Numbered from the stretch's first letter, positions 1-63,991 are shown. The stretch is DNA of 64,000 nt from an uncultured Hormoscilla sp. (GCA_963921275.4 OZ001293.3:2880001-2944000); one strand, 5' to 3'. The notes: generated by a model from the sequence alone, not told the origin. Program-made: numbers and translations.

Positions 1-451
1 CTGCCAATCAGGTTGCCGGTCGATCGCCCGGGTCAAAGCTAGCTCCTCATCTGTCCCAACTCACTCAACACCACCGCCCGCTGATACCAGGCCCAGTAAT
101 TCTCGGGTTCCAACTCGAGGGAGCGGTCGTAGTCGGACAGAGGTAATGCCAGGCCCTTCCCAGGCGGTACCAGGCCCAGTAATCATCTGGTCTTAACTCC
201 AAAGCTTGTTTATAAGACGCGACCGCCTCCGAGTACCGTCCTAAGCTCAACAGGGCACTGCCTCGGTTATACCAGGCCCAGTAGTCCGACGGTTGAGACT
301 CCAATACCTTGTCGTAATGGGCGAGGGCCTCCGAGTAGTTAGTCTCCGCATCTAAGTCTCGCCCCCGATCGGACCAACTCCAGTAATTCTCCGGTCTAGT
401 CTCCTGTGAAGCCCGATTTTTCTGAAGTTCGCCTGGCCTGTCAGAATTCAT
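1..451 (-). pseudogene. TPR-repeat protein, frameshifted near 137, runs off window start
   Basis: Repeated YWAWYNRG/YDKVLE/YKQALELRPDDYWAW TPR motifs; TPR text continues in another frame; likely start ATG 451. Confidence 0.75.
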
Positions 452-606
452 CAGCAACCCCTCCCTACAACAGTTTTCCGCCGCTCGTTTATCTGCACCT
501 GGCACCGCCATCCTTCGACTACCCGAGGGATCTGGGGAGGGCAGATGAAATCGGGCCTGCAAATATAGTATACTTTTAGCGATAGCTTTTCACAAAGGAG
601 TCAAGC

Positions 607-1173
607 ATGGCAGACCTCAAGGCTAAGGTCACTCTCCAGAAAAAGGGCGACGAAGCATACATTTCCGTCAAGCAACTGATGGTGACCTTGAAATGGACCA
701 AAGATGTCGATCTGGATTTGATGGCTTTCTATAAAGCCAAGGACTCACGGACTGGCGGTGTCTTCTCCGACAACTACCCAGGCGGTTCCATGGGAAGCCT
801 CAACGAGTTTCCCTTCATTCAACTGAGCGGCGATGCCGGAGTTGGAGCTAAGGGCGGCGACAACGAGGAGATTTTGAGAATCACCAAGCTGGACGACTTG
901 GCGGAACTCTACATTTGCACCTTAAACTACACGGACGCTAGTGAGAAGAAAGACGCCTCCTTCGGCAATTATGATGGTGGCATTGTCGTCATCGATGATA
1001 AAGGCGAGTCTGTTGCCGTTCCTTTGGACTCCACGGAATCGGGTCACGTGGCTGTTATTGCCAAGATTGACAATACAGGTCCCATGGGTGCCAAGTTGAT
1101 CAACGAAAACCGGATTGTCACATTGGAGACTTTCTTCAGCGATATTCCCGGCGCTAATAAACTCGCGGGTTAA
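607..1173 (+). CDS. TerD-like stress protein (divergent subfamily)
   Basis: LKW..DVDLDLMAFY, QLSGDAGVG..GGDNEE motifs; AAGGAG RBS; paralogs downstream. Confidence 0.8.
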   Translation: MADLKAKVTLQKKGDEAYISVKQLMVTLKWTKDVDLDLMAFYKAKDSRTGGVFSDNYPGGSMGSLNEFPFIQLSGDAGVGAKGGDNEEILRITKLDDLAELYICTLNYTDASEKKDASFGNYDGGIVVIDDKGESVAVPLDSTESGHVAVIAKIDNTGPMGAKLINENRIVTLETFFSDIPGANKLAG

Positions 1174-1248
1174 AGCTAGTCCCCGTTCCTGTTGCCCTTC
1201 CCCTGCTCTCACGGGGAGGGCAAGATCGCGTTAAAGTTAAGGTGCCTA

Positions 1249-2277
1249 ATGAGCTCTCAAATCACTACCTATCATCTGCAACGAGAAAATAATCCCCGTC
1301 GCCAAACAGCTCTCAGCTTTCCTTTCCTGGGCCAGTTAGGATTAACTTCCGAACCCGATTTGCTCGCCTGTAGAAAACACTTACAAGTGCTGCTGCGGTC
1401 AGCGGCATGCCAAAAGCCGATATCGGGAGAGCCTTTAATTATTGGCTTAGCTGAATCGGGAATTATCCCCTCTGGTCTGATGCATCAAGTGGTCAGAGAA
1501 CGGCAGATCTCCGCAGGCTGGATCTGTTCTACCCGCAGGCGGGCTTCTGGGATTCGCTTTATGGAAAGCCATTCCCACAGTCCCTATCATATCCTACCTC
1601 TGCCCCAATTTCAACCCACTCAATTATGGTTCGTAGAAGATGAAATTACTACAGGTCGGACTATCTTAAATTTAGCCCTGCATCTGTGCTCCCTGCTACA
1701 AGTTCGCCAGATGAGATTCTTCACCATCGCCGATAGCCGCAGCCCTGCCCAAATTGCCCAGTTTGAGTCCATTCTTGCCGAGCGCGACATCCAGTTCTCT
1801 ACCCATACTTTAATTCGTTTACCTCCCGATCGCCAATATCTCGCCCAAGACTTACTGCCTCAAGATATTATCATTAGTGAGGATCTGATTGTCAAAGAGC
1901 GAGATAAAATTCAGAGCCAATGGCACTTGTCTGGGCAACGAGCAGCCCGGCAAACACAATGGCATATAGTGCCGGATTTACCAAACAATCTGGAAGGTTC
2001 CCTTTTGGCGATCGGGGAGGCGATCGATTTAGCCTGGAGAATGGTGCGGGGGAATCCCAAATTATCCTTTCAGCATATCACCCTCAATCCCTGGCGCGTT
2101 GATGGCATCAATATTCAGCATCGCTTAGATATTTGTGATAAATATTATCTCTATAACTACAAGCACCTGAAGTCCCCCATCTACCTCCTCTATGACCCCC
2201 AGGACCGGGCGATCGCCTCAGGGGCTAAAAAAAAATTATCCCAAGCAGGATTTACCGTCAATAATTTGATCTTCTAG
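1249..2277 (+). CDS. Ter-cluster phosphoribosyltransferase-domain protein
   Basis: IIGLAESG, FMESHSH and WFVEDEITTGRT PRPP-binding motif; Ter context. Confidence 0.8.
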   Translation: MSSQITTYHLQRENNPRRQTALSFPFLGQLGLTSEPDLLACRKHLQVLLRSAACQKPISGEPLIIGLAESGIIPSGLMHQVVRERQISAGWICSTRRRASGIRFMESHSHSPYHILPLPQFQPTQLWFVEDEITTGRTILNLALHLCSLLQVRQMRFFTIADSRSPAQIAQFESILAERDIQFSTHTLIRLPPDRQYLAQDLLPQDIIISEDLIVKERDKIQSQWHLSGQRAARQTQWHIVPDLPNNLEGSLLAIGEAIDLAWRMVRGNPKLSFQHITLNPWRVDGINIQHRLDICDKYYLYNYKHLKSPIYLLYDPQDRAIASGAKKKLSQAGFTVNNLIF

Positions 2278-2283
2278 AAAAAC

Positions 2284-3276
2284 ATGGAATTTCTAACAAA
2301 TTTGGACAGAAAAAATCTTTGGAATCAACCGGTATACGCCCAGTTTCTGGCGGAAATTGACCCCTTTAGAGACTTTCAATATTTTCGGAAATATTTTGCT
2401 TATGATGGCCAGAATACCTTTTGGTCAAAACCTTGCCCAGAACCAAACCTGGAGGACGAGTTTTGGCAATTGGTACTCTCAAAACTAGCAGATGAAAAAT
2501 TGCAACTGGCTGCTACTCGCCTCGCTGCTGCTATTATCGCTACAGCCCCCGATCCTAGCAAGTTACTCTTTGTAGCTATTTTAAGAGGCGGTGTCCCGAT
2601 CGCAGATTGGCTTTGTCGCCTACTACCGGGATCGGTGGCGGTGGCCTTATCTCTATTTGTGGGCATAGGCATCGATCGAGTGGCTTTGCAAAACGTGCGA
2701 TCGCATTATCCCGATCGGCAAATCATCTTTGTTGACGGTTGGACTGGTAAAGGTGGCGTAGCCAGAGAATTATCAAAACTGGGACATTGTTCCGGAAAAA
2801 TCGGACCCCTAGCAGTTTTAATTGACCCTTGGGGCTGGGCAGATTTTTCTGGTGCAGTTGACGATCTATTCTGTCCCACAGCTTGTTTCACTGGCGTCGC
2901 TACTCTCGGCTTTTCTAGTGGCTTCTATGTAGACGATCGCCGTTTATTTGCCTCGTACCTATTTCCCGAAGCCTATTGTCGCCCCCAATTAGTTACAACC
3001 TGGCAGAACTCTTGCCCTCAATTGCCATCAACAACGCCACCAGAGAAGCAACGCTTTTGGTTAGAAACAGACTTGAGAATACATAGCAATGAAGTTTGCC
3101 GTGGCTTAATGAATGCCAATCCGGATACCCTCTATTTTGCCGACGATCGCATCTACGTTCGAGAACATTATAGCCTGATATTGGCTTTAGCCGAGCGGCG
3201 GCGTGTAAACATTGTCTATAATGCCAAGCATTTAGCAGATTACCGAACCCGCGTTGCCTGCTCCTTTCAGAAATGA
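2284..3276 (+). CDS. StiP-like (cysteine protease/PRTase-like) Ter-associated protein
   Basis: LRGGVP, GIGID, IIFVDGWTGKGG motifs. Confidence 0.75.
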   Translation: MEFLTNLDRKNLWNQPVYAQFLAEIDPFRDFQYFRKYFAYDGQNTFWSKPCPEPNLEDEFWQLVLSKLADEKLQLAATRLAAAIIATAPDPSKLLFVAILRGGVPIADWLCRLLPGSVAVALSLFVGIGIDRVALQNVRSHYPDRQIIFVDGWTGKGGVARELSKLGHCSGKIGPLAVLIDPWGWADFSGAVDDLFCPTACFTGVATLGFSSGFYVDDRRLFASYLFPEAYCRPQLVTTWQNSCPQLPSTTPPEKQRFWLETDLRIHSNEVCRGLMNANPDTLYFADDRIYVREHYSLILALAERRRVNIVYNAKHLADYRTRVACSFQK

Positions 3277-3372
3277 CTGGTATTGGGGAAGGGTCGCCTC
3301 AAAAGGTTGCAATTAACCATCAAGCATCTTAAGTTATGCTATAATCGAGTCAGTAGCGTAGGAAAAAGAGAT

Positions 3373-4152
3373 ATGTCTCAGTCAGTAGCGCCTGCGAAAA
3401 CCATGACATTTGAGGAATATCGGTTCTACCAGGGAGAACCGAATGTTCTGTACGAGCTATTCCGAGGACATTTGATACCAATGGCAACGCCAACATCTCT
3501 GCATACCAGAATCTGCAATTTTCTCGCCTATATCTTCTGGCGTCATTTTGCCAGTCAAAATCTAGCATTAATTGCCACAGATTTTACTGGAGTCAGAACA
3601 GAAGCGGATTCATCTCGCATTCCAGATGTGGTAGTTTGCTCTGCCGAACTCTGGGAGCAATGCTGTGCCAGACCGGGTGCTGGTATTCTGGACTTTGGGG
3701 AAGTGCCAACTCTAGTAGTTGAAGTCACTAGCGAAAATTGGCGGGAAGATTATGTCCGCAAACGGGCTGAATATGCCTCGCTCGATATTCTCGAATATTG
3801 GATAGTAGACCCGAACAAGGAGCAAGTATGGATTTTGAGTAATCCTGAAGGTCAGCGTGGTTACGATCGGGTAGAATATACAAGAGGGCAATCCTTCAGG
3901 TCTGTGCAGTTTTCCCAACTGGTTTTATCAGTTAATACAGTCCTTGCTCCTCCAGTGGTGGAGGATTTAATCAGGGAAGAGCAAGCACAACTGCGACAGG
4001 TTGAACAACAGAGAGATGAAGAGCGACAACGGGTCGATCGGGAGCGACAACGGGCAGATCGGGAGCGACAACGGGCAGATCGGGAGCGACAACGAGCAGA
4101 ACAATTGGCTGCTAAATTAAAGGAAATGGGATTAGACCCAGATACGATCTAG
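3373..4152 (+). CDS. Uma2 family endonuclease with coiled-coil tail, copy 1
   Basis: PDVVV, LVVEVTS, EYWIVDP; 21-nt ERQRADR tail repeats; GLDPDTI end. Confidence 0.9.
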   Translation: MSQSVAPAKTMTFEEYRFYQGEPNVLYELFRGHLIPMATPTSLHTRICNFLAYIFWRHFASQNLALIATDFTGVRTEADSSRIPDVVVCSAELWEQCCARPGAGILDFGEVPTLVVEVTSENWREDYVRKRAEYASLDILEYWIVDPNKEQVWILSNPEGQRGYDRVEYTRGQSFRSVQFSQLVLSVNTVLAPPVVEDLIREEQAQLRQVEQQRDEERQRVDRERQRADRERQRADRERQRAEQLAAKLKEMGLDPDTI

Positions 4153-4453
4153 AACCTAAGGGAAGGAGTGGGGTGCATCTCAATGCAAGAATCAAGAAAC
4201 CCGGTAATTCCGGCAAAACCTGATTTCTGGGCAAAAGAGTGAATATACCCGCCGCAAAAGTGAGATACTCCCGAAGGAGTTCTCTGTAGCGCTGCGCATA
4301 ATACGGAGTTCGGAGTTATATCCGAACCCGCATTACTCGATTCTTTCAGAAATGACTGATAATTAAGTAAACGATCGCCTCAAAAGGTTGCAATTAACCA
4401 TCAAGCATCTTAAGTTATGCTATAATCGAGTCAGTAGCGTAAAAAAAAGAGAT

Positions 4454-5338
4454 ATGTCTCAGTCAGTAGCGCCTGCGAAAACCATGACATTTGAGGAATA
4501 TCAGTTCTACCAGGGAGAACCGAATGTTCTGTACGAGCTATTCCGAGGACATTTGATACCAATGGCAACGCCAACATCTCTGCATGCCAGAATCTGCAAT
4601 TTTCTCGCCTATATCTTCTGGCGTCATTTTGCCAGTCAAAATCTAGCATTAATTGCCACAGATTTTACTGGAGTCAGAACAGAAGCGGATTCATCTCGTA
4701 TTCCAGATGTGGTAGTTTGCTCTGCCGAACTCTGGGAGCAATGCTGTGCCAGACCGGGTGCTGGTATTCTGGACTTTGGGGAAGTGCCAACTCTAGTAGT
4801 TGAAGTCACTAGCGAAAATTGGCGGGAAGATTATGTCCGCAAACGAGCTGAATATGCCTCGGTCGATATTCCCGAATATTGGATAGTAGACCCGAACAAG
4901 GAGCAAGTATGGATTTTGAGTAATCCTGAAGGTCAGCGTGGTTACGATCGGGTAGAATATACAAGAGGGCAATCCTTCAAGTCTGTGCAGTTTCCCCAAC
5001 TGGTTTTATCAGTTAATACAGTGCTTGCGCCTCCAGTGGTGGAGGATTTAATCAGGGAAGAACAAGCACAACTGCAACAGGTTGAACAAGAGAGAGAGCA
5101 AGAGCGACAACGGGCCGAGCAGGAGCGACAACGGGCAGAAGAAAAGCAACAACTCGCCGAGCAGGAGCGACAACGGGCCGAACAGGAGCGACAACGGGCA
5201 GATCGGGAGCGACAACGGGCAGATCGGGAGCGACAACGGGCAGAAGAAAAGCAACAACTCGCCGAGCAGGAGCGACAACGGGCCGAACAATTGGCTGCTA
5301 AATTACAGGAAATGGGATTAGACCCAGATACAATCTAG
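4454..5338 (+). CDS. Uma2 family endonuclease, tandem duplicate with longer tail
   Basis: Near-identical to 3373..4152; more 21-nt tail units. Confidence 0.9.
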   Translation: MSQSVAPAKTMTFEEYQFYQGEPNVLYELFRGHLIPMATPTSLHARICNFLAYIFWRHFASQNLALIATDFTGVRTEADSSRIPDVVVCSAELWEQCCARPGAGILDFGEVPTLVVEVTSENWREDYVRKRAEYASVDIPEYWIVDPNKEQVWILSNPEGQRGYDRVEYTRGQSFKSVQFPQLVLSVNTVLAPPVVEDLIREEQAQLQQVEQEREQERQRAEQERQRAEEKQQLAEQERQRAEQERQRADRERQRADRERQRAEEKQQLAEQERQRAEQLAAKLQEMGLDPDTI

Positions 5339-5567
5339 AATAGTCACCTTTCATGTCGCGAGTGCAAAACGAACGCCAGATGCCAGATGCGGGCAGATCG
5401 CCATAGCCCAGAAACCAGGTTTTTGCAAAAAACCCGGTTTCTTTATACGCAGTGCGCGACACCAGGAGCGCTATTGATTCTTGAGATGCTCCCAGGTTTT
5501 CGCCAAATGACTCGGCTGTCCCAAAAACGGATAATTTTATTTCAAAACCCTGCGTTTGAGTTCCTTC

Positions 5568-5614
5568 TGACAACCAACAACTGACAACCAACAACTGACA
5601 ACCAACAACTGACA
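5568..5614 (+). repeat. Heptamer short tandem repeat (CTGACAA/CCAACAA, STRR-like)
   Basis: Direct reading. Confidence 0.85.
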
Positions 5615-6298
5615 ATGGAAAAAGTTTTAGCTGTAGATTTGGATGGGACCCTGCTGCATCCCGAACCAGAGGTGATCGCAGTCTGGGGTCGTTCCCGTTA
5701 CCAGTATATGAGTTCAATGGCAGCCCAGCTACTAGAGGAAATTAGTCACCAGATGCCAGTGGCGATCGCCAGCGCCCGGAATGCCCAAAGCGTCAAAATA
5801 CTGGTGGACCAACTGCCGCAGGTAAACTTTTGTGGCTTTGTCACCGAAAATGGTCTGGTAGCCAGAAGGCACCTGCACCCAGTTGCCAATGGATCTGAGT
5901 GGGACATAGTAGCCAATTTACTCCCAGATTGGCTGCGCATCACCGGTTACGAACAATGTCTCGGTCTGATTCCGCCCACATCTGTGGACAACCCGGAAGC
6001 CATGTTGCGGTCCGTTCTCTGCCAAACAGGCAAGCATGGATATATTTACTTAGACCAACATAAAATATTTGTCTATCCAGCCCGGAGCAGCAAACTATCC
6101 GGACTGGGGCAGTTGGGCCTCGAACCCCGGATGGCCCTGGGCAACGACCTGAATGACTTGGACATGCTGGGACATTCCCTGCACCCAGCTACTCTGGCTA
6201 ATGGGCATCAAAAATTCAAAGATGTGGTTAAATTAAAGCCAGGGGGTTACTGCTCCCCCGCCGTGTCTCATGCTGGGACAGGAGATATATTATTATGA
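5615..6298 (+). CDS. HAD-superfamily hydrolase (Ter-associated)
   Basis: DLDGTLL motif I, SAR, ENG, GNDLNDLDML motif IV. Confidence 0.85.
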   Translation: MEKVLAVDLDGTLLHPEPEVIAVWGRSRYQYMSSMAAQLLEEISHQMPVAIASARNAQSVKILVDQLPQVNFCGFVTENGLVARRHLHPVANGSEWDIVANLLPDWLRITGYEQCLGLIPPTSVDNPEAMLRSVLCQTGKHGYIYLDQHKIFVYPARSSKLSGLGQLGLEPRMALGNDLNDLDMLGHSLHPATLANGHQKFKDVVKLKPGGYCSPAVSHAGTGDILL

Positions 6299-6421
6299 AT
6301 TAAGATCCTTTGCGCCAGCAGATATAGTACCGTGGGGATTTAGTTCCCTTCATTACGTTACGGAAAATTGCGTCTGGTTGATTGTTAAGTTACAATCAGC
6401 AATTCAGATAAAGGATAAAAC

Positions 6422-6988
6422 ATGGCAGAACTGAAAGCAAAATTAACCCTAGGAAAAAAAGGCGATGAAGCCTACATTCCCATCCACAAACTGATAGTTA
6501 CCCTGCATTGGACTGCAAATGTAGATTTGGACCTGATGGCATTCTACAAAACTAAGTCCGATCGCACCGGTGCAGTATTGTCCGCAAATTACCCAGGCGG
6601 GAACCAGGGCAGTCTCAGTAGTTTCCCTTATATTCAACTCAGTCAGGATGCTGGTGTAGGGGCGAGAGGCGGGGATAATCAGGAAGAGTTAGGGATCTCC
6701 AAATTGGATGAAATGGCAGAAGTATACATCTGCACCATCAACTATACTGATGCCAGCGCCAGGAAAGATAGCTCGTTCAGCGACTATGATGGTGGTGTGG
6801 TGGTGCGAGACGACAGAGGTGAGTCGGTAGCGATTCCTTTGGATGCAACGGAAAAAGGTCACATTGCCATTATCGCGAAAATTGATAATACTAGCCCCAT
6901 CGGTGCGAAACTGATTAACGAAAACCGGATCGTCAGTTTAGGCAAATTCGCTAGTAGCATTCCCGGTGCGGAAAATCTTTTGGGCTAA
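6422..6988 (+). CDS. TerD-like stress protein
   Basis: Paralog of 607..1173. Confidence 0.8.
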   Translation: MAELKAKLTLGKKGDEAYIPIHKLIVTLHWTANVDLDLMAFYKTKSDRTGAVLSANYPGGNQGSLSSFPYIQLSQDAGVGARGGDNQEELGISKLDEMAEVYICTINYTDASARKDSSFSDYDGGVVVRDDRGESVAIPLDATEKGHIAIIAKIDNTSPIGAKLINENRIVSLGKFASSIPGAENLLG

Positions 6989-7012
6989 CAGGAGATTCAT
7001 TGGAGTCAAAAT

Positions 7013-7579
7013 ATGGCGGAACTAAAATCGAAAGTCACTCTCCAAACTAAGGGAGAGGAAGCATATATACCGATCAAGCAGTTAATGGTCACCCTCAGCT
7101 GGACTGCCGACGTAGATTTGGACTTGATGGCATTCTATCAAACTAAGGATGGTCGCACTGGGGGAGTGGTGTCTGATAACTATCCCGGTGGGGACATGGG
7201 TTCCTTAAATAGCTTTCCTTTTATTCAACTGAGTGGCGATGCTGGTGTGGGTGCAGTCGGTGGCGAGAATGAAGAAGTGTTACGCATCACTCGCCTCGAT
7301 GATATGGCCTTCGTCTATATCTGCACTATTAACTATACCGACGCGATCGAGAAAAAAGAATCCTCTTTCAGCGCCTATGATGGTAATATCAGAGTGGTAG
7401 ACCACCAGGGTGAATCGGTAGAAGTGCCGTTGAATTCGCCGGAAACAGGAGCAGTGGCTGTGGTGGCCAAAATCGACAATACTAGCCCGATCGGTGCTAA
7501 GTTGATTAACGAAAACCGGATTATTAGTTTAGATACTTTCGAGACGGACATTCCTGGCTCTCACGTAATTTTAGCTTAG
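7013..7579 (+). CDS. TerD-like stress protein
   Basis: Paralog of 607..1173. Confidence 0.8.
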   Translation: MAELKSKVTLQTKGEEAYIPIKQLMVTLSWTADVDLDLMAFYQTKDGRTGGVVSDNYPGGDMGSLNSFPFIQLSGDAGVGAVGGENEEVLRITRLDDMAFVYICTINYTDAIEKKESSFSAYDGNIRVVDHQGESVEVPLNSPETGAVAVVAKIDNTSPIGAKLINENRIISLDTFETDIPGSHVILA

Positions 7580-7596
7580 CATAGGAGGTACAGCTG

Positions 7597-23300: not shown

Positions 23301-23557
23301 GTATAAGCAGTCAGCATTTCCTTTGCTAATTATGGCGATCGCCTGTTCGCGCTTAACACACTGAGGTTTGTAGTGAGGACGGAAGTCCTCACTACAAACC
23401 TCAGAAAAATCGGAAAATGGTCTAAAAACTCATCCAGTGAATCACCCCCTTCGAGATAATCAAGCAATATTTTCATTGGTACCCGCGTGCCAACAAAAAC
23501 TGGTGTTCCTCCCATTATATCTGGGTCGCTATGGACGATAGGTGATGTATGCTTCAT
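23290..23557 (-). pseudogene. DUF433 antitoxin frameshifted by a 50-nt hairpin insertion (23361-23410)
   Basis: DPDIMGGTPVFVGTRVP..FLDHFP; removing the insert restores CVKREQAIA. Confidence 0.8.
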
Positions 23558-24355: not shown

Positions 24356-25847
<1,492 letters not shown>

Positions 25848-25903
25848 CTATTTGATTATTCTATCATCCTGGGCGAACTGAGGGCAAGAAAGTAGTTTGT
25901 AGT

Positions 25904-26065: not shown

Positions 26066-26248
26066 ATGACAATCCTGTTAGAAATCGAAGCGGCCATCAA
26101 ACAGTTGCCCGAACCGTTCCGGAAAAATCGGGATGTTCGCCAGTTGGCAGCATGGTTACAGACCTATTTAGACGAGCGGTGGGATCTGCAGATGCAGGAC
26201 GACGCCGAAGTAGACATCGCCGCTAACCAAGTGAGAGAGTTGCCTTAA
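26066..26248 (+). CDS. Small antitoxin-like protein with a 15-nt in-frame insertion; possibly internally deleted
   Basis: EIEAAIKQLP..WDLQM; insert 26114-26128. Confidence 0.55.
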   Translation: MTILLEIEAAIKQLPEPFRKNRDVRQLAAWLQTYLDERWDLQMQDDAEVDIAANQVRELP

Positions 26249-30323: not shown

Positions 30324-30427
30324 GCACCTGAAAATAGTTCGATCGTGGCGGACTTTAGTCCTTATCTCGCGAAGTCGCAGGTGAGGACTTTAGTCCTCAC
30401 TACAAACCTCAGAAAAACATGAAGGGG

Positions 30428-32983: not shown

Positions 32984-33286
32984 ATGTTTCAATTGTTATA
33001 TTTTATACTACATGCCCTGGATCCGTTTCTGGTTCCGATTTGCTTTGTCTGTGCCTGGATGTTAGTGCTGATGGTAGCTTGGAGTCTCTGGAGGGCCGTG
33101 CGATCGGGGGTTGCGATTTTTCGCGCAGCGTGGGCCCAGATGATGCACCAGATCCCCTGTACCGGCTGTCAGTTTTTCACCAATGATTACCGGCTCAAAT
33201 GTACGGTGCGGCCTCAAATTGCCAATACCGAGAGGGCGATCGCCTGTTCTGACTATTCTGCCAAACAGAATCCTTTCAGTCTATAG
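32984..33286 (+). CDS. Conserved cyanobacterial membrane/Cys-motif protein with a 15-nt in-frame insertion
   Basis: PICF..AW, MHQIPC..C.FFT.DYRLKCTV.P..A.TE.AI.C. Confidence 0.8.
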   Translation: MFQLLYFILHALDPFLVPICFVCAWMLVLMVAWSLWRAVRSGVAIFRAAWAQMMHQIPCTGCQFFTNDYRLKCTVRPQIANTERAIACSDYSAKQNPFSL

Positions 33287-34481: not shown

Positions 34482-35216
34482 TTAATGAGATGCTCCCGTT
34501 TCTTGAGTATAGAGCGATCGCCCGCACGGTCCGCGGACGGCCCGAAAAATCGGGGTAGCCAAGTCCGGTCTACCAACCTCGCACAGGGCCCGATCGCGAA
34601 TGCGGCAAGAGTCGCAGGCCCCACAGGGAAGTTCTTCGCCCTGATAGCAAGAGTAAGTCTCTTGAATGGGAACCCCCAACTGCAAGGCGCGACGGACGAT
34701 ATCCGCTTTAGAATCTTTAACTAAGGGGGCAACCAATTTAGGGGCCTTGCCTTCCAGTCCCACTTGAGATGATAAATTAGCCAACTGACCGAAAGCTGCC
34801 AAATATTCCGGGCGACAGTCAGGATAGCCAGAATAGTCTACCGCATTAATGCCCAGATAGATAGCTGACGCCCCCTTTGCTTCCGCCAGGGAAAGGGCGA
34901 TCGCGATAAAGACGGTATTGCGTCCGGGCACATAGGTAATAGGAATTATCCCTGGTTTGACGCCATCAGTAGGTACGGAAACATTTCGGTCGGTGAGGGC
35001 CGAACCTCCCCACTGGGATAAATTAACATCTATGATATAATGTTCGGCAAGGTGCAACTCTTTGGCAATAGTTTGGGCAGCCTCTAGTTCCCGATCGTGC
35101 CGTTGCCCGTAACGAAAGGATATAGCTATAGTTTGGTAGCCATCGGCAATAGCTTGGGCCGCAGCGGTGGAGGAGTCCAGTCCGCCAGACAGGAGGGCGA
35201 TCGCCTTTTCGTTCAT
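34482..35216 (-). CDS. queC: 7-cyano-7-deazaguanine synthase (24-nt insertion near C-terminus)
   Basis: LSGGLDS, YVPGRN, YPDCR, CY..CG.CDSC. Confidence 0.95.
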
Positions 35217-36692: not shown

Positions 36693-36924
36693 ACCTGACA
36701 GTCCACAACTATAATCAAGGCGGGCGGTCGCCTTTACTAGGACTATGTCAATAGAAGCGATCGCCTTACATTCAGTCTTCTGATAGGGTGTGGTCAAAAC
36801 CCGTTGGTACTCGGCCTCGCCTTCTGTGCTCCGCACAAGCCCGAACCCTAAAGGGTCCGGCTATATGAACAAAGCCCGCCTGCGCGGGCTATATACATGT
36901 ATCTGAGATGCACTCGGCTATCAA

Positions 36925-49772: not shown

Positions 49773-51623
49773 TTACTCAAATGCTGGATAGATATCGTTT
49801 TCAAAGATATCCTTAATCCAACCAGGCAAGAAGGAATACTTGGGATCGTAAACGTTAAGATCCGATCGCAGGTCTACTTTGTAAGTAGATGTTCGGGGAG
49901 CTATTTCCGGTATCCAAGCCGCGTGCAGGGGAAAAGCAAACTTGACCTCGGGATGCCGCAGTTTGGCAACGGGACCGGCAGCCAGATTTCCCGCCTGCCA
50001 AATCCAGAATTCCGAATATTCTGGGGTGGAGACCATAGCCACCAGATAACCTTCTAACTCATTATTCTGACCGAGCTTGGGAAAGTAAACCGTAGTGGTA
50101 ACGCAGGTTCCCCGAGGGGCAGCCCAGAAATCCTTTACTTCCATATCCCCAGGGGACCATCGCATCACCCCCGCTTCTTTCCATCGGGGTAGATCCTCTA
50201 TGGGAACTTCTCGGAACTCGTGGTGTTCGTACAGTTTCACCAAACGCCTGGGAGTAATTTCGCTGATGTAGCCAGTGAAATTCACCCAAAAATTTGCAAA
50301 CTCTGGGGGACTGGTTTCTTGAATGCCATTATAAGTAGGAAGGGCAATCCCCCAGAAGCGATCGGACAACTGGTATTTGCTGCTCTTTATTTCCCCCGTC
50401 TGGGCGTTGACCACGTATTTGCCGAATCCTTGCTGGTCGTAAACTCCCGGAGGCGAGCCATGGAAAGGCGCGCTTACCCAGTCATCAAATGTCGGCCAGC
50501 TCGCGTCCCATCGCCGGTTCCATTCACTCACATCGTGTCCGGAAGCATGCAATAAATGCAAGGTGACATCATCGTTGTCATCGTCATAGTTGGCAAAGAA
50601 GTGAACGCACTCCCGGGGGATCTCGACGTATTTGGCCCAAGCAGTAGCTATCTCTTCTTTTCCATCATTGAGCTGCGCTCTGGGCACAAACCAGACTTGG
50701 TTGTATGGGGACTGGGGCTTCGCTGGAGCACCGGGAATCATTATCCGATAATATTCCATGGTAAATGCCGTGTCAATGATGATGATATAATTGCGCGTGA
50801 CGGCAATTTGATGGGTTGACTGTTTAATTACCACTGGCTCTTTGGTGCGATCGTCGATAATCCGAGTAGTCTTAAATTTCCCGGTGCCATCCCAAACCTG
50901 TATGTAGGCATCGGGTTGAATGCTGCCTAGGGCAATGGGAATTTCAAAAATCGTATTGATGATGAAAATTTACCCGGTGCGATCGTCGTAAGCAGGATGA
51001 GCGGCGCTCATGTGCATGGGAAAGATCCAGGGAAACTTGATGTGCGGGATATTCGGGATGCCGTCAATCTCCATTTTCATCCACTCGGAGCGCTGGCCCA
51101 CCGGCGTGACGGGAGCGAAGGTGGTCGGATCGAAATCAAACGGACGGCCCGAGTCAATGGTAGCCATCATCCGCCAAGAACCATTGTCTGGGTCTTGAAA
51201 GGCTTGAAGGCCAGTATGACATTGGTTCTGCACTCCTAGGAACAGGTTAAGACGCGCCAAACCCATCTTGTTGCTAAACCGATAAGCCCTTCTCCAGAAC
51301 TTCCAGAAGGACTGCTCTTGAATTTTCAGATCGCAGATGATGGACGGTGTATGAAAAGGTCCGCTTTTTAGATGCACCCGATTTTTCGGGCCGTCCGCGG
51401 ACCGATCGCCTTTAAAGTCTAAGCGATACAACTGCCTGTAGCCATTAAACCAAGGGGTATCTCCCGCTTGGGGTGTAGGCACCATCCAAAATGCGTGTCC
51501 CGCCATGTCCGTAGGTATGGACCCCTCAATTGTATTGAGGTCCAGGTCGAGAAGTGCCGTGTTTTGGTAGCGGATGTGGGTGGGAAAATCGGGAGGACTC
51601 ATAAATTTAGCCTGCCAAAGCAA
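49773..51623 (-). pseudogene. Carotenoid oxygenase (RPE65) family gene with one in-frame TAA (50970-50972)
   Basis: Both ORFs in the same frame; four His (AHP, THQ, VHF, LHA); 24-nt insert 51381-51404. Confidence 0.75.
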
Positions 51624-53022: not shown

Positions 53023-53277
<255 letters not shown>

Positions 53278-53420: not shown

Positions 53421-53598
53421 CTTTTTTCTATTTTTTCGGAAAGTAGTGCGAGTTCTTCGTAGGGTGAGCACCCCTCACCAGAATGTAGTATTTTTTTACC
53501 AACTAATGCAAGACCACACTCGTCGTCATCTGACTGGCGGACCCCAGGGGATCCCGGGGAAACTCCGCATCATTACATAGATCAGCAGGCCCAGATGG

Positions 53599-53734
53599 TA
53601 TATGCTGAGAGGCAAATCATATATGCTGAGAGGCAAATCATATATGCTGAGAGGCAAATCATATATGCTAAGAGGCAAATCATATATGCTGAGAGGCAAA
53701 TCATATATGCTGAGAGGCAAATCATATATGCTGA
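53599..53734 (+). repeat. 21-bp tandem repeat x about 6 (ATATGCTGAGAGGCAAATCAT)
   Basis: Direct reading. Confidence 0.95.
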
Positions 53735-54058
53735 TTTCTGGAAATACTCGTGCAGTTCTTGCACCTTGAGTAGATCGAGTATGTGGTGCGCTACTGAGGT
53801 TTGTCACTACAAACCTCAGAAAAATCGGTCACCCAATCTTGCTGTAGCAACAGGTCTGCTAAATAGAGATAGGTATGTGCTAACAGTTCTAGTGTAAGAT
53901 TGCTGCTGTTGCAGGGATAGCACCTCCTGATGGCAAAACGTTGGTAGGGTGGGCAATGCCCACCTTGTCAATTGTGGGTTGTTGGTTGTCAGTTGCTATC
54001 GCTGATAAAGACTAAAGTCCTTACTACGAACCTCTGATCTATAGGCCCAGTCCCATTC

Positions 54059-56825: not shown

Positions 56826-59739
56826 TTAGAACACTTCCAGATCGAAAGGGACGAAACTTCCATTCAACTCGTCTGGTGCCACCCGGTTAACCATGCCTAA
56901 AATCAGATTGGAGTCGGCAATTGTGATCATAGTATTGGTGCCCAATGATTCTAGAATTATATCATCTGAAGTTAATCCACCCGTTAGCCCGATCGCATCT
57001 TCTGCCACCTGAAAGTCCACGAGGACATCAACTTGCGATCTGTTAACCACTGCTGCCTCAGGGGACAGGACGAAAATATCACTGCCCGGACCGCCCAGGA
57101 GAATATCTTGACCAGATCCGCCATTGATAGTATCGTCTCCTGCACCGCCCTGGATGAAGTCATTTCCTCGACCTCCAAGGAGTTCGTCATCGCCCATACC
57201 GCCAGTCAGGCTGTCGGCACCGGGACCAGCAAAGATAATATCATCCCCTGACATGCTATCGATCGTATCGTCCCCGCCAAAGGAGATAATTAGATCGTTC
57301 TCAGGGGTGCCCATCAGCATATCGTCCCCTGGGTTCCCTCGGATCAGATTTACAAACTCCGGTGGCGGTTTTACATCACCACCGGAAATGAAGAATTGGG
57401 CCTCTTCCCAAACCGCCTCGCCCACGTTGCGCCCGAGGATTAATCCCTCTTCGTTCCCAGCAAAATTATGAATCCCACCATAGAGGCAAGAGATCCCCGA
57501 CGATGTTGCTGCATCGGAAAAGGTATCCCAACTCAGAGTCACCGGTTCGGCGGGCGTGATTCCCGGTTCAAACAAAGACTCTCCAGCAGGTGCCGTCACC
57601 GAAGCCCCAAATTGATCGCTACCTGTAAACCGCTGGAGAACTTCCGCCGCAGCGCTGCTGAAGGCACTGTGTCCCGATACATATTCAGCCAAGGGAGGAG
57701 TGGGACTTTCCAAGCGCTGGTAAGGGATAAATTCCGATCCATCTAGTTCGACAGTGCCCTGTCCCGGACCGCCCCAAGCTTCGATAGTTTGACCGCCAAA
57801 CAGAGCCTCGATCGCCGTGATCGGACGCACGTAATCATAGAATACTTTTGCTTCCCAGGCCACAATCCCCGCATCCATGACAGCGTTACCCAACATGAAG
57901 AACATCTTGGCGTCTTCATCCAGGGTGTTATCGTCCCGTTCGGAAACGAACTGGCCAAAACCCATCCAGGTACCGGGAGGAAAGGATGATCCCGGTCCAT
58001 CTTCCCAGAACTCCGCAACAATTTTGCGCTCGTCGTTGAGGTTGGCGCTGATCTCGATAACTTCCTCATGCAGCGTCAGGAACTCCTCGCTGCCAAACTC
58101 CGGCGGTGCTGGGGGTCGGAATTGGTCCCCTGATTCTAGTCCAAAGGGAATCACTTCGCCCCACTGAGGGGTGAGGAACTGTTGGACTGTGCCATCTGGG
58201 TCGCGCAAAGGTTGCAGCAGGGGTTGCCAGCGGTTCGGATCGACGATCTCCTCTCCCTGGGGAGGATTTACTGGCTCGTAACCCGTATAGTCGGAGTAGG
58301 GCAGACCATCATTTGGATGGGGTCGAGCCGGGAATCGCTTCCCGACCCTCCCTTGAGGAACCGGACTTGCGATTTTCACCGCATCCGGCTACTGGGTACT
58401 AGGCCCTTTTCATAGGTAGACTTAATAGGAATTACTTCCGTTAGCCCTTGCCGCCTGTCTTTTCTTCCCTTTCCTGGTTTAGCGAGTGGTTGTTCTGATA
58501 ACCGTTAGTATCACCATTTTCAAGTCAGTTTTACCAGTTATCCATACCTTATCCTCCACTTGCGTTTCGGATTAGTTCCGTGGCTTTTTAGGATTACTCA
58601 TTCCAGCAGCTTCCTAGTATCACCGACCCACGTCAGCACTGGCTACCCAGCATCATCTACATTACTGTAGATGTTATCCCAGGAATTACCCCGGGCATTC
58701 GCTTCTTGGGCCATCCCTCCCCCCGTGGCTTGCGCTTAACATCTAACTTGTCCTGATGGACAGCACACGAGAGGTTACTTCGTTCCCTAACAACATTTCG
58801 CGATACCTTTAGGTCCACACTATACCCCGGGAGCTATTTGAGTACTATATTAGCCAGAGTCTAAAACTAATACTAGCTACCATTTCCTTTTTAGGCCAGC
58901 GCATATAGCCTTATTTCGCTGGTTCCTTATAACGAGGCTTGCACATGTTTGCCTGCTCTAACCTTGGATATCTTTCCTAGCGGCGTCACCGGCTTAGGCT
59001 GCCAGTTATCCTACATTTGAGTCCTCGCTTAGCACCACGATGATGTCGCTTCGTAGCACCGAGGACCGGTGTCACCCCCGTACCTGGGGGGAGGGGAATT
59101 TAACCCCCATGCGGTCAGAGTTCCCGGCTAATGAAACCGGGCTAGCGTTCCGTGTTTGACCACGTTAGGCTAGAACGAATCGCACAGATCCCCTAACTGG
59201 TTGGAACCGTCGTTGCGGCGAAAGTCGAGTAATGCCTGGGCCGAGACATTGCCAATGCCTGCGGGGGTAGAGTTGTTGTCTGGGTCTAGGCCCAGTTGTT
59301 CCATGAGGCTATCGAACAAATCTACCTCTGTGGGAAACAGGTCTTCCAGCACCCGATAGGCCGCATAACTCATGGCCTCGGTTTTGTTTTCCAGGGTATT
59401 TTCCTCGGCGGGCCGTTGCAGGTCGTCACCCAACTGGGTGCCGATGGCCTCTGGGTCGTATGCTGCCCAGGCATCGAAGATCGCCGTATGCACCATCCCG
59501 TAGGCGCGGGAGGCGATCGTCGGTCCTACACCTAAATTGCGGACTGCTTGCTGTGCCGCCTCATCCCACAAAACCGAGGGCGTTATCTCTTCGGTCGCAT
59601 CAGTCAGGGTCCTGTCGGGGTTGAGCCAAAAAATCCCTATGGGTTCCCCGTCCACTTCGCCGAAGGAGACGGGACTGATACCAACACCGTTTATCCATCC
59701 TAGGCCGTCATTGGTGAGTTCTATTTCGATCGGATCCAT
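56826..59739 (-). CDS. Vanadium haloperoxidase-like/PAP2 protein with RTX Ca-binding repeats, interrupted by a group II intron; may be a pseudogene
   Basis: GPTIASRA, DGSNQLG | YSDYTGY, K..YDYVRP, EYVSGHS, YGGIH; GGxGxD repeats. Confidence 0.8.
58317..59185 (-). mobile_element. ORF-less group II intron (about 869 nt)
   Basis: 5' GTGCGATTCG; domain V AGCCGGATGCGGTGAAAATCGCAAGTCCGGTT; domain VI with bulged A 7 nt from the ..CCCCAT end; no RT ORF. Confidence 0.92.
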
Positions 59740-59800
59740 AATTTTCTGCTTGCGAATTTTTCATTGAGAATTGTTAATTGCCATTAGGGTAGTTTGGCCG

Positions 59801-60859
59801 TTAGCCATTACCTCCAATGGTCAATATGCGGCGAATTTCATCAGTTTTGAAGCCGATCGCCATTGGCCGACGCACCCCTGGCAAGATTGCCACGTCATAC
59901 AATTCCTCTACTACACCTTCTATCCGCAACCAATGTACGATATCCCCTGTGCGCAGGTCAATAACTAACAGTCCGCAGCGGGGTTCGGCATCTCTAGTGG
60001 AGAGGTTTTCATCTAAAGGCAGGCTCGAAAATGTCTTGTTATTTCTCGGTTTAGATATGCCCACCACTGCAAAGTTACGGCTAAAGGCACAGCCCCGCAA
60101 GTATCCCGGACAGAATGTCACCGCTTCAAAGGTTAAACTCTTCAGGTCTGCATAACCAAAGAAACCCGTACCCGAGTTTAACAGCCACAGTTTCTTCTGA
60201 TGCCAGCGGGGCGAGTGGGGCATGGAAAGCCCGGTAACGATCGCCTCATTGCTGCTGACATCTATGACGCATCCCCCGGAAACCCTGCGATCGCGCCACC
60301 CATCAGCTACATCACTTTGACTGACAGCAGTAACGTATTTTGCCTGACCATTTTGCATAGCTAAGCCATTCAGGTGACATCTATCTTCAGCAGCAAGTCG
60401 GGAAATAAAAGGTGGTTGCCAGAGGGGAATAAAACTATGCTCTTCACTTACGGTCGCCAGACAGCCAAATAATGTATTGACAAATATAATCTTTCCTGTT
60501 TTATCTACAGCCACATCATGAACATCCAAGTCCCCAGTAATGTAACCGACTTGGGGCACGAGCAAGCAGTCATAACCATTATGAACCTGTCCGGGTTGCA
60601 GTGCATTTTGAAATCGCCACAGTTGATACAGTACGCTCATGTAAAGCCTGGAACTATCTGCTCACAAGCCCATACATCGCTCGAAAGTGCGTTCAAATAC
60701 TGATAGTCGCCCGTCTGGTTGCAAACCGATCAGAAACAGTTTACCTGCTTGATAGGTGGTGAAGGCCAGACTGATGTTTTGCTCCCCTAACCAGGCGGTA
60801 AACTGGCGGGAACAGTTAATTTCTAGGGATGGAATTGAGGTTGGTTGTGGTTGTGTCAC
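59801..60859 (-). pseudogene. TIGR03032 family protein, frameshift near 60660
   Basis: SLAFTTYQAGKL, FERCMGL, EDRCHLNGLA, MPHSPRW. Confidence 0.85.
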
Positions 60860-60987
60860 TTCAGTTGGTTTGCGTTCTACTAAGGATTATTATAACACAA
60901 ATGTGCGCGGATTCGCTGTTAGCCCGCTGGGGATTCTCAACTTTGAACGGTATATTGTATAATGGAGATGTCGTTGTTTCTGAATGC

Positions 60988-61275
60988 ATGACTATTGCAT
61001 GCGCTGCGCGCACGCTGCACGATCGAGTCGGCGAACAATATCAAATCACGATTCCCGATCACGCAGCGCGGCGCAGCCGTGGATGTGCGAGAATGGGGCT
61101 AAAAACAGGTGATTCCCTGGATGTGAAAGTCATCGATGGGGCTCTGGTTATGGTACCGTTTTCGGTAAAACCCCTAAGTCATACGGAGCGAATTTTTGGA
61201 AAGCATCGTGGGTTGTGGTCTGGAGAGGATGCAGTGGCTTATATTCGTAAAGAACGGGAATCATGGCGAGACTAG
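60988..61275 (+). CDS. AbrB/MazE-like antitoxin carrying two micro-insertions
   Basis: YQITIP..GLKTGD; YIRKERESW. Confidence 0.7.
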   Translation: MTIACAARTLHDRVGEQYQITIPDHAARRSRGCARMGLKTGDSLDVKVIDGALVMVPFSVKPLSHTERIFGKHRGLWSGEDAVAYIRKERESWRD

Positions 61276-61640
61276 AAGAACTCGAAGTGATAGAATTGCC
61301 TTGGATAGCTTCATCTTTATTTACGGTTTTTAAGGTAACCCACAATTTGGAGAACGAGCTAAAAAGATTTTTTCCCAAGATTGAGCAGGGACAATGTCTT
61401 GGCTTCCCTTGCGATCTTGTTCTGGCTGAATTGATAGTCAAACCATTGCGAGAAGGACGATTGGAGATTGCCGTTCGCGCAGCGCGGCGCAGCCGTAGGA
61501 TACGCTCGCGATTTGACAAGTTTTCCGAACTTGAACTTTGTCTGCCTAACCCAGGCAATTGTTATTGCTGCCGCCGGTTTAAGAGGAAGATGCTTCTTTG
61601 CATCTTCCTGATGTCGGTTTGGATATTTGGATGTTGACAG
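61263..61640 (+). pseudogene. PIN-domain toxin, decayed; frameshifted by a 22-nt insertion
   Basis: LAELIVKPLREG; removing 61474-61495 gives EIAVGYARDLTSFPNL. Confidence 0.65.
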
Positions 61641-62117
61641 ATATTGAAGACTAAAATCAACTCAGAGATTTGATGCGAAAATATGTCGGATCAGAAACCA
61701 GGTTTATTCGAGAAATATGGTTTATAAATCTGCGGTTGATTTATCCAGAATATGAGTGCGATCGCCATTATCGCGTCTCAATCCTATATTTTTCTAGGTA
61801 ACAATTTTATCAGATAACAAACTGATAAAATTCAGATTTTAATCTCGAGCATAAAAAGATATCAAAATCCTTGACAATTACAATTTAAACTATCTATATT
61901 TAAAATGGCAATTCTAAAAATGAGAAAACTCCAATGCCCGAGACAAAACGATCAAATAACCGCCCCCATTCGGGGGCTGCTCCTAACTGAAAATCGCCGG
62001 TTGATTGCTGGCCGGAGATCGGGTATTGGAGACTCTTTTTTCTAACCGGTTGGCTAAGCGGTCAAAAAATTATGGCGCACAGAGATCCAGGCGATCGGGT
62101 TGGATATTTGCTGATTT

Positions 62118-62154
62118 AAAAAGCCCGGTTTCTCCTGCGAAACCGGGCTTTTTC
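62118..62154. terminator. Bidirectional intrinsic terminator-like hairpin
   Basis: AAAAAGCCCGGTTTC-TCCTGC-GAAACCGGGCTTTTT. Confidence 0.7.
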
Positions 62155-62734
62155 CTATGGAACTTCGATATAGTATAAGGTAACCCATAATTGGGCGATC
62201 GCCCTAAAAAGATCTACTGATTCACGAGCACTCTGCGCCCGCGAGACCAGCTAAGAAAGCCAGTTTTTTGTCAAAACTGGCTTTCTGGGGTACTGGGGAG
62301 ATACCCTCAATACTTCTCGGTTAAGCAATAAATTCGGAGTGGGGAGTGGCTTACAGGGGTATGTTTTTTAGATTTCGGTCAATACTTCAAGGTTTTGCAT
62401 TTTATTTGTCATTGCGAGGGGGGGGAGGTTGATTGTCACTACCCTTTGGCCCAGATCCCATCCAGTTTGTAACTTGAGGTAATTTTCTGCGAAAAAGTTG
62501 AGCTTTGGACCGATACCTCTGTAGAAGGAGCTCACGGGGTCTTGTTGGAACCGGTTGCTTCCCTGAGGTTGAGTTCAAATATTTCGTGGAGATTTTCTAT
62601 GTCAGGCAAATACGTGAAAAAGCTGGCGATCGGAGCGGACTGGAACCGGAAGTTGAAGATGGGTGCAGCTCATTTGTAGTTGCATTAGTAGAGCAATTTT
62701 AGACTCTGGTCGGTATTTGTGCCTACCGGCTTAT

Positions 62735-63991
62735 TCATCGGGGAAAAGTTGGCAAGTCAATTGCGGCCAGGGACTTAATCTTCTTGTGGGGACGGAGGGG
62801 ATAAACTAGAGGAGAGGGGGACTTTGTAGAGGAAAGCAGGGACAACGTCTCGGCATCCACCGTGCCGGAAAAATCGGAACCCCCCTCTGAGGCTTGCTCT
62901 TCGCTTTGGTGGCTTTCTTGCTGCTCAAAGATAGATGCAACGTCGGAAAGTGAGTCCTCTGGAGTTTGCTCATTCCCTATGCTTGAAGAGTTATCTACTG
63001 CTGCTACTGTCTCATCAGTCAAGTCCTCACCAACTTCAGAATACTCATCCTCTAATTGTTCCGAGACCGAAGCCATTACCGATAACTCATTTTCAGGGGA
63101 AGCGAGTTCCTCTGAGACTGCGGACTCTGATACCCCAAGGGTTTCTCTGGGTCGATCCTGCTGTGAGACGGGGGCGCGAACGCTGCGCGAAAAATCGACA
63201 GTAGGAGTATCGGCAGATATCTGCCAGTAGTCAGGCTCACCCCAAGCCTGCCCAGGTACTGCATCCGACTCTTCTGGATCGAGATATAATTCAAGTTCTG
63301 CTAATTCAGATGCTGCTGACCAGGGTTGAATTGCTGGCGCTTTCGGGACAACTCCCTGTACGATCGCTCTGGTATCTGTTTCCTGTTGAGTGCTCCGACC
63401 CACCGTTCCGGAAAAATTAGCCGGTTGTTCCGGACCCGTCATCTCCAGGCATTTGTCCAGGGCATTTTTGAATTGCAGGGTGTAGCGTTGCTGCCGGTAC
63501 AGACGCGATCGCAAATCCCGGCAAATCGTTTCCGCTTGGGAAAGCTTAGTTGTCTGTTCCTCGTAGCGTTGCTGAGTAAGAGCACAATCTCGTTCCAACT
63601 GGGCCACTTGTTGTTGGTTAGTTTCCAACTGCCCGCGGAGTGTTTCTATGAGAATTTGTTGGCGAACCGTTCCGGAAAAATCGGAAGTTTGCTGGCCAAG
63701 TTCCTTTTCCTGCTGCACCTGAGAGTGCTGTTTTTTCAAGCTATGCAGTTCTGCGGACTGCTCGGAGAGTTTGGCCTCTTGAGCTTGACAATGCTCCTGA
63801 TATAGCTGCAATTGCCTTTGAGCAACTGCCAGTTCTGATTCTAACTGCATTACCCGATCGATCAAATCCGTGTTTGACTCTACCCGTACTTCTGCCGATG
63901 TCTGGTCGGTGTCTCCGGAGTAGTGCGAGTAGCGCTCTCCGGAGACACCGAAGATGTCTACCGTTCCGGAAAAATCGGGGTTTTCGCGCAC
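62735..63991 (-). CDS. Cyanobacterial coiled-coil protein carrying six in-frame micro-insertions; 5' end may lie outside the window
   Basis: RQQILIETL, LERDCA, LRSRL.RQQR.TLQFK.AL.KCL; C-terminal SPSP..YP.RP.K..KSLAAIDLP.F. Confidence 0.8.
   Translation of the reverse strand: MRENPDFSGTVDIFGVSGERYSHYSGDTDQTSAEVRVESNTDLIDRVMQLESELAVAQRQLQLYQEHCQAQEAKLSEQSAELHSLKKQHSQVQQEKELGQQTSDFSGTVRQQILIETLRGQLETNQQQVAQLERDCALTQQRYEEQTTKLSQAETICRDLRSRLYRQQRYTLQFKNALDKCLEMTGPEQPANFSGTVGRSTQQETDTRAIVQGVVPKAPAIQPWSAASELAELELYLDPEESDAVPGQAWGEPDYWQISADTPTVDFSRSVRAPVSQQDRPRETLGVSESAVSEELASPENELSVMASVSEQLEDEYSEVGEDLTDETVAAVDNSSSIGNEQTPEDSLSDVASIFEQQESHQSEEQASEGGSDFSGTVDAETLSLLSSTKSPSPLVYPLRPHKKIKSLAAIDLPTFPR

Follow-up and report, generated by a model that had tools for sequence, protein, structure and literature searches.

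T5 elements, a family of very small hairpin-bearing repeats found 3' of CGA in the genome of an uncultured Hormoscilla sp.

A 64,000-nt stretch of the genome of an uncultured Hormoscilla sp. (GCA_963921275.4 OZ001293.3:2880001-2944000; the window) contains a set of very short, similar sequence blocks, which raise the question of whether sequences as short as 15 nt can be mobile and, if so, what moves them. An original prediction, made from the sequence alone, had listed 14 copies of 12 to 50 nt with a fixed start, ATTTTTC, an end in G, a CG^T target and a variable hairpin payload, and all 14 strings were found where they had been placed. Based on the comparisons reported here, we are highly confident that the underlying units, referred to here as T5 elements, are real, mobile and non-coding micro-elements of the form TTTTT-C(hairpin)G-T that are inserted exactly 3' of (C)CGA. 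In the best overall explanation, to which we assign a probability of roughly 0.5, elements of this identity would be moved by an HUH-like break-and-join activity acting in trans.

The genome that includes the window (G000, 7.03 Mb) was compared with 0.79 Mb of congener G001, 0.4 Mb of G002, 1.2 Mb of G004 and the orthologues of the window in G003, the congener regions being picked in part because they hold elements. Among 134 genome-pair comparisons of T5 sites, 69 gave an orthologue that is empty at exactly the length of the element, 35 a filled orthologue and 30 another outcome; in the first batch, most of these other outcomes were empties with indels nearby. An exact-length empty orthologue is available for 63 independent sites, with A at position -1 in 60 of the 63. 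The +1 base differs in only 6 of the 63 empties, within the range of 1 to 10 at flanking positions, and these counts do not support conversion of the +1 base of the target. In the empty orthologues the A of the target is kept and a T of the element is absent, which places the cut at GA^ and shows that the predicted ATTTTTC...G boundary at CG^T was one base off; target bases are neither duplicated nor deleted. The two readings agree only where the last base of a copy is A and TCG follows, for instance at 51381. The host peptides that had been reconstructed from the earlier boundary are also wrong, the real empty alleles reading LAEGLT (DUF433 gene, G004) and ATPIGRSLY (queC, G001).

In the window, 9 of the 14 predicted copies have an empty orthologue (in the original numbering, 416, 2787, 23361, 26114, 33116, 34527, 53135, 53794 and 63667). 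At 62860 and 63403, the orthologues of G002, G003 and G004 are filled as well, the copy at 63181 is altered in the congeners, and those at 51381 and 63961 are without an alignable orthologue. The same boundary is also seen within one genome, at C1:6817615, where a 15-mer is nested in a 50-mer. Assembled contigs of three public runs cross several copies and do not differ from the genome, and the copies are therefore not assembly errors. The predicted mobility and clean insertion are thus borne out by empty orthologues and a nested copy; the T5 family has been active recently and has inserted many times independently. Insertions of other kinds were seen in the same alignments: the congener orthologues of window positions 62860-63200 carry 66- to 69-nt hairpin insertions and a 15-nt extension within a 15-mer, and the catalogue of indels is rich in hairpin families of 42-57 nt and 70-76 nt.

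On contig C1 of G000, the counts are 185 and 100 for the two main 15-mers and 62 for the 24-mer, far above the 0.13, 0.18 and 1e-7 expected by chance under a 6th-order Markov model, while the 12-mer is found only 7 times where 2.7 are expected. A loose pattern has ~426 matches on C1, and the six small contigs have none. Collapse of copies carried by repeated hosts leaves 305 independent sites, which were found with patterns that required A at -1 and which have CGA at positions -3 to -1 in 263 cases and TGA in 28. Directly 3' of the cut, G is found at 128 sites, A at 91, T at 86 and C at none. When the pattern no longer demands A, this base is still at -1 in 438 of 440 sites. The TG and TA that the original prediction had listed as exceptional targets represent decayed or variant CGA. 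The target is a half-site or core of the highly iterated palindrome HIP1 (4738 sites on C1), strict in its left half and loose in its right half.

The elements themselves also have fixed parts. The T run is exactly five long in 182, 95 and 61 copies, and among natural variants it and the terminal C-G pair are invariant while the payload and the loop base may change. Counted with the commonest loops, the payload stems are paired as CCG/CGG (175), CGC/GCG (96), CGG/CCG (2) and CTG/CAG (1), and the loop keeps the form GNA, which it has on just one of the strands. The predicted covarying stems with GNA loops are thereby confirmed, as are the fixed ends and variable payload, the covariation consisting of two large lineages and two rare ones with few events behind it. 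Terminal inverted repeats and target duplication, as in miniature inverted-repeat elements of DDE transposons, are absent, and the ends are asymmetric; Rfam has no match for any element. The target also depends on the element: at sites with a purine next, and with one host repeat excluded, families that have C at -4 of their own end are found at targets with C at -4 in 218 of 233 cases, compared to 10 of 31 among the remaining families (p=2e-14). This would be expected if DNA-DNA contacts steer cutting, a principle described for Y1 enzymes in passages of PMC6006769. Simple Watson-Crick pairing of the 5' arm of the element to the target was also considered; it fits some families, fails for the CCG and 50-nt types, and was rejected.

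Using our own crude calls of open reading frames (ORFs; 4632 genes, 61% coding), intact ORFs hold 147 of 294 independent 15- and 24-mers, i.e. about half and not most of them as had been predicted, compared to 62.7% of unoccupied CCGA^R sites. By class, 96/176 and 35/87 copies of the two 15-mers, 16/31 of the 24-mer and 1/11 of the 50-mers are ORF-resident. With the sister families described below included, 171/348 elements with a length that is a multiple of three lie inside ORFs versus 10/69 of other lengths (p=5e-8). The frame-keeping copies in genes reflect tolerance under selection and not function. Copies are oriented sense in 49 cases and antisense in 47, and the frames that yield DFSGT and TVPEK are favored (p=4e-4). 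This skew is the one point in favor of a reading without mobility, in which the copies would stem from convergent mutation, slippage or a selected protein motif; the exact-length empties at 63 sites, the same sequence in unrelated contexts, the nested insertion and the existence of intergenic copies refute it and leave it with next to no probability. Close neighbors (<500 bp) are in excess, with 49 pairs versus 12.4 expected, and 35 of these 49 are on the same strand versus 56% among control targets (p=0.03).

Group II introns and insertion sequences (ISs) are among the carriers of T5 elements, and several intron copies have a 15-mer in their 5' part. An IS with ~11 copies (G000:C1:830214-831584), which we take from its features to be ISKra4-like, holds up to five 24-mers per copy in a single orientation. 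Separately, six tandem A-ended 15-mers lie in frame at G000:C1:4116585-4116674 in a 1168-amino-acid gene that by eye resembles mfd.

The size classes are not all independent. At site 53794, the insertion is 32 nt long in G000 and 12 nt in G002, and the site is empty in G001; G004 holds additional shortened forms. Because of this series, the 12- and 32-mers, which had been taken for family members in their own right, are collapsed 50-mers and not separate mobile units, and T5 copies outside the frame-keeping set decay by hairpin collapse. The payload of the 50-mer, which as predicted frameshifts its DUF433-like host, is a perfect palindrome of a GTAG family of repetitive extragenic palindromic sequences (REPs) with 288 sites in G000, and its loop is found in both orientations. 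The payload can be exchanged, a REP palindrome of the host having turned into the 50-mer. A single-copy locus at 30382-30417 (-) shares its first 25 nt with the 50-mer, has an ordinary REP loop and no mirrored arm, and is not preceded by GA; the locus is conserved in G001, G002 and G003, and its T5 corresponds to the run of A's immediately upstream of an ATG at 30419. We suggest that the 50-mer was likely born at this locus by fold-back copying; alternatively, the locus may be a decayed 50-mer. One 50-mer (G000:C1:4740091-4740146) has T5 at both ends and forms a perfect inverted repeat extending into the CGA target. Downstream of the gene broken by the 32-mer, at window positions 53500-53800 (-), there is a 21-nt tandem repeat of about seven units.

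Are T5 elements related to known small repeats? The main 15-mer is present in all five genomes of the genus (26-180 copies) and in none of 36 other relatives, and the general T5 pattern has 295 matches in G000, compared to no more than one per genome among 200 others of the class. The 24-mer had no match among metagenome contigs and the 50-mer none among plasmids; viral contigs gave one match. The same genome contains sister elements of 22, 23 and 24 nt with the order T-hairpin-hairpin-T and the same target, for which 29 sites have empty orthologues. The T5 15-mer of the CGC-GCA-GCG type equals the first hairpin of these two-hairpin sisters plus four more T's, and this first hairpin (CGC-GNA-GCG) recurs in many two-hairpin genomes across families. 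In 200 of the 354 kb of the N. punctiforme plasmid pNPUN01, 21-nt inserts with two GNA hairpins split HIP1 between bases 3 and 4, and these fit the description of SDR5, one of the small dispersed repeats (SDRs), in passages of two citing papers (PMC4390886, PMC13756078); further passages on SDRs are in PMC5861425 and PMC3116915. Our comparison with SDR5 relies on these descriptions and on the pNPUN01 inserts.

We therefore define, as an operational group, an SDR5-like superfamily of elements with two GNA hairpins. T5 elements share with it a GNA triloop hairpin with a 3-bp stem at a CG[A/T] junction and the lack of duplication, but have one hairpin instead of two; they are a one-hairpin offshoot of this superfamily, with a T4 linker replacing one hairpin. 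As in SDR5 and the other N. punctiforme SDRs, the elements are tiny, dispersed, non-coding, mobile as judged by empty orthologues, inserted precisely and without duplication in the middle of a HIP1-like site, capable of tandem self-insertion, and without a known enzyme. They differ from SDR5 in their T5 leader, in a length of 15, 24 or 50 nt instead of 21 nt, in carrying exchangeable cargo of up to 50 nt, in a cut after and not before the A on the GNA strand, in their targets, most of which are CCGA^R and not HIP1 (with T at +1 in only 86/305, outside the 3/4 register), and in their confinement to a single genus, which probably does not belong to Nostocaceae. The register of SDR5 would fit the A-ended copies at CGA^TCG. 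The prediction that the units are shorter than SDRs of 21-27 nt was correct for the 15-mers, whereas their supposed independence from described SDRs was not, given that the sisters share target and first hairpin and match the architecture of the N. punctiforme inserts. Thus, the T5 family is a variant of the SDR kind rather than a separate category. We found no description of it in the open-access literature, with the reservation that the supplement of Elhai et al. 2008 may list a relative; new from the window are the series of collapsed forms, the locus where the 50-mer was likely born, the SDR5-like link and the element-dependent target rule. The two-hairpin pattern matches 36 of 121 genomes of the order and reaches at least 10 copies in 12 genomes from five other families, with none in five same-family non-congeners; four families other than that of the Nostoc-type sequence (f3, f9, f20 and f74) have such repeats in 13-47 copies. 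A 2018 paper states in the passage concerned that no SDRs were found outside Nostocaceae (PMC5861425), and by these matches the SDR5-like superfamily seems wider than this limit.

What could move such elements? The asymmetry, precise ends, lack of duplication, strand-specific GNA hairpins, lack of transcription bias and weak same-strand trend suggest a single-stranded DNA substrate and an enzyme acting in trans. In the mechanism that we tentatively favor, a trans-acting single-strand break-and-join enzyme, most likely of the HUH class (Y1-like), would bind the folded T5 strand and cut at GA^T and GT^N. The excised strand would close into a small single-stranded circle consisting of a T6 loop and the stem, and, as in peel-and-paste transposition, the circle would be inserted at CGA^ where the DNA is exposed as a single strand. 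The copy number could then rise because the opposite strand is replicated. Y1 HUH genes are present in all five genomes of the genus, and this class leads by elimination of others together with analogy (passages of PMC6006769, PMC3333891 and PMC5027513). No Y2 transposase was detected in the five genomes at E<=1, nor was Cas1; tyrosine recombinases (PF00589), and hence XerC/D-like genes, were not found in G000, G001, G002 and G004 but are present in 14 of 14 control genomes; IS110 occurs as fragments or not at all, except for one open frame in G003; and no extra topoisomerase gene was found.

Several observations weigh against this mechanism. As noted in the original prediction, the window holds no candidate enzyme, and no HUH or RAYT (REP-associated transposase) gene next to elements was seen elsewhere either: none of 31 Y1 loci has T5 or sister elements, and hence the same ends, within ~1.5 kb, their flanks holding other REPs. 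Nor are T5 sites near GTAG REPs. The only Y1 type common to all four congeners is a mere fragment in G000, and the same type is found in 5/12 repeat-rich versus 12/85 repeat-free genomes, as defined by the two-hairpin SDR5-like pattern (p=0.03), being neither necessary nor sufficient. The contigs of the three public runs, which possibly derive from the source sample, contain no circle and no empty allele. The 9-nt T5 hairpin is far below the 20- to 25-nt hairpins bound by TnpA, and T4 or TTTC is mismatched to the guide-target pairing of IS608. A check for lagging-strand bias gave a weak local same-strand trend, with strand clustering partly due to paralogues, and no usable GC skew (p=0.014 at 2 kb, no link at 10 or 50 kb). 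ViennaRNA energies fail to separate the strands for 15-mers, and an exchange of A and T at junctions followed by TC is not explained by simple one-strand transfer. Targeted domain searches, which did not include serine recombinases, relaxases, Rep proteins or a scan of the whole proteome, did not find the enzyme, and a search for an autonomous partner by element density returned only the ISKra4-like IS, tandem repeats, restriction-modification loci and housekeeping genes. Fourteen tests of REP proximity gave three with p<0.05 (two for non-GTAG repeats, of which one is a known host repeat; one with p=0.049), which we do not take as support.

Known systems resemble T5 elements in part. IS200/IS605 elements, which use Y1 HUH enzymes, similarly lack target duplication and have a fixed short target 5' of the element, an end resembling the target, strand asymmetry and a hairpin at the end (passages of PMC6006769, PMC5027513). 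By contrast, T5 elements have a single 9- to 18-nt hairpin instead of two of 20-25 nt, also prefer bases 3' of the cut, and have no cognate tnpA or guide pairing that we could find. REPs and REPINs with their RAYT (TnpA-REP) are likewise short dispersed hairpins, the GTAG palindrome of the 50-mer is one of them, and the C^T cut of TnpA-REP described in PMC3333891 resembles the opposite strand of the T5 target, which is often C^T; however, the 15- and 24-mers lack a GTAG tag at the hairpin foot, the tag being confined to the payload of the 50- and 32-mers, and T5 elements are about half intragenic and clustered neither at RAYT genes nor near REPs. Rickettsia palindromic elements and intragenic REPs are also inserted in frame in working genes and add short peptides (passages of PMC3733652), but T5 elements are much shorter, with a strict target, a different sequence and another phylum. 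Three traits attributed to Helitrons and IS91, i.e. a T start after a host A, a 3' hairpin and no duplication, are shared as well; here, the lack of a Y2 transposase and the precise T5 ends set the families apart.

The elements could also move through RNA, with transcripts copied by a group II intron reverse transcriptase and joined at CGA^. Elhai et al. in 2008 reportedly favored an RNA-mediated model for SDRs. The 93 reverse transcriptase domain matches on C1, most of them in frames of 400-600 amino acids typical of group II introns, would provide the enzyme, T5 elements ride within group II introns and ISs, and the G-A mismatch and 4-nt loop of the 24-mer could be RNA structure. We nonetheless consider this route doubtful: the T run is invariant and not tail-like, the ends have no intron signatures, 15 nt is short for primer plus template, and GNA triloops are a feature of DNA mini-hairpins. 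The lack of sense bias (49:47) makes the data lean towards DNA.

Alternatively, host machinery may suffice, with topoisomerase IA or a HIP1-directed cutting or recombination activity rejoining a looped-out hairpin oligonucleotide at HIP1-like sites. The lack of a linked enzyme, the degenerate HIP1 core as target, the spread of SDR5-like kin across many families and the restriction of the A/T exchange to junctions resembling HIP1 cores would all fit, and bacterial topoisomerase I picks a C four bases upstream of its cut (passages of PMC3467081), which matches CCGA^ and the ends CGGT^, CCGT^, CAGT^ and CCAT^. We regard this explanation as unlikely, since topA is single-copy and also present in the element-free G005, the topoisomerase rule is looser than the invariant G-2 and A-1, the ends of two families have G at -4, and HIP1-bearing genomes of the same family lack elements.

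The junction data bear on a further possibility, in which a serine or DEDD/IS110-type recombinase would act on both strands and join a hairpin-closed donor to CGA^ sites through an overlap of 1 nt. Copies whose last base is A are nearly always followed by T, and one site is T-ended in G004 and A-ended in G000. Of 232 sister-element sites, counting the junctions inside dimers, 54 have T and not A at -1, versus a background of 0.3% at this HIP1 position, and the sister 24-mer has all four A/T junction combinations (29, 32, 14 and 17 of 96). T5 elements, on the other hand, never have T at the left junction, IS110 is absent from G001, and known recombinase sites would not fit into a duplex donor of only 15 bp, making this a very improbable route. 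Finally, we speculate, with considerable reserve, that cyanobacteria may possess an uncharacterised HIP1-half-site break-and-join activity for which a short leader of T's, a single closed hairpin and a terminal T would be enough. Every chromosomal stretch of this shape could then become mobile, the end of the element would tune the target, and the A/T exchange could make or repair HIP1 cores; the host locus at 30382-30417 appears to be an example of a chromosomal stretch turned mobile element.

T5 and sister elements of the window, with corrected boundaries
Feature	Position	Strand	Orthologues or other basis
12-nt T5 element, probably a collapsed 50-mer; in frame, antisense in TPR ORF	417..428	+	G004 empty: CCCGA^TCGCC
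Degenerate 15-nt T5 (CCG-GAA type), StiP-like gene (Pfam)	2786..2800	-	Empty in G001, G002, G004; 9-nt remnant in G003
50-nt T5 with perfect GTAG-REP palindrome; frameshifts DUF433-like gene	23360..23409	-	G001 empty; REP identity; translation
15-nt T5, CCG-GAA-CGG	26113..26127	-	G001 empty
Single-copy host T5-CTGAG, then ordinary GTAG REP	30382..30417	-	Likely birthplace of 50-mer; not in original prediction
15-nt T5, CGC-GCA-GCG (equals SDR5-like first hairpin)	33117..33131	+	Empty in G001, G004: GCGA^GGG
24-nt T5, in frame, 3' end of queC	34526..34549	-	Empty in G001, G002, G004; 20-nt remnant in G003
24-nt T5 ending in A, CGA^TCG (HIP1-core) site	51382..51405	+	Sequence; no orthologue aligned
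Decayed 24-nt T5, in frame, DUF433 gene	53136..53159	+	G004 empty; canonical 24-mer at same site in G001
32-nt contraction of 50-nt element; frameshifts host	53793..53824	-	12 nt in G002, G001 empty
Sister two-hairpin (SDR5-like) 22-mer after CCGT	61475..61496	+	Not in original prediction; no orthologue aligned
15-nt T5, CCG-GCA-CGG, in frame (DFSGT)	62859..62873	-	Filled in G002, G003, G004
15-nt T5, CGC-GCA-GCG, in frame	63180..63194	-	Congeners altered
15-nt T5, CCG-GAA-CGG, in frame	63402..63416	-	Upstream G mutated in G000, G002; CTGA kept in G003, G004
15-nt T5, CCG-GAA-CGG, in frame	63666..63680	-	G004 empty: CCGA^TCG
15-nt T5, CCG-GAA-CGG, in frame	63960..63974	-	Sequence; no orthologue aligned

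Besides these elements, Rfam matches in the window comprise a thiamine pyrophosphate riboswitch before thiC at 25755-25853 (-), a group II intron 3' remnant at 58317-58393 (-) and a weak, lone CRISPR-DR28 match at 36868-36891 (+). Elsewhere in G000, the topA domain match at C1:3713889-3715232 is 45 bases longer than those of the congeners, probably by an in-frame hairpin insertion, and contigs C2-C7 have no HIP1 sites; one of them, C3, has 17.6% G+C and is probably foreign to the organism.

How SDRs move has been an open question since 2008, and the passage on SDR5 in a 2026 paper calls its function unknown (PMC13756078). The T5 family offers a 15-nt minimal substrate, an exact target derived from ~300 sites, natural variants, a candidate locus of birth and a narrowed set of possible enzymes; with minimal substrate and target at hand, the mechanism can be tested with oligonucleotides. 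The enzyme, if found, could give scarless small insertions. If the proposed activity on HIP1 half-sites is true, the T5 unit would be the smallest transposition substrate known to us, and the activity would represent a scarless, cargo-carrying insertion chemistry and provide a link to the origin of HIP1. For the organism itself, the elements add peptides of 5-8 residues to ~150 predicted proteins in one genome.

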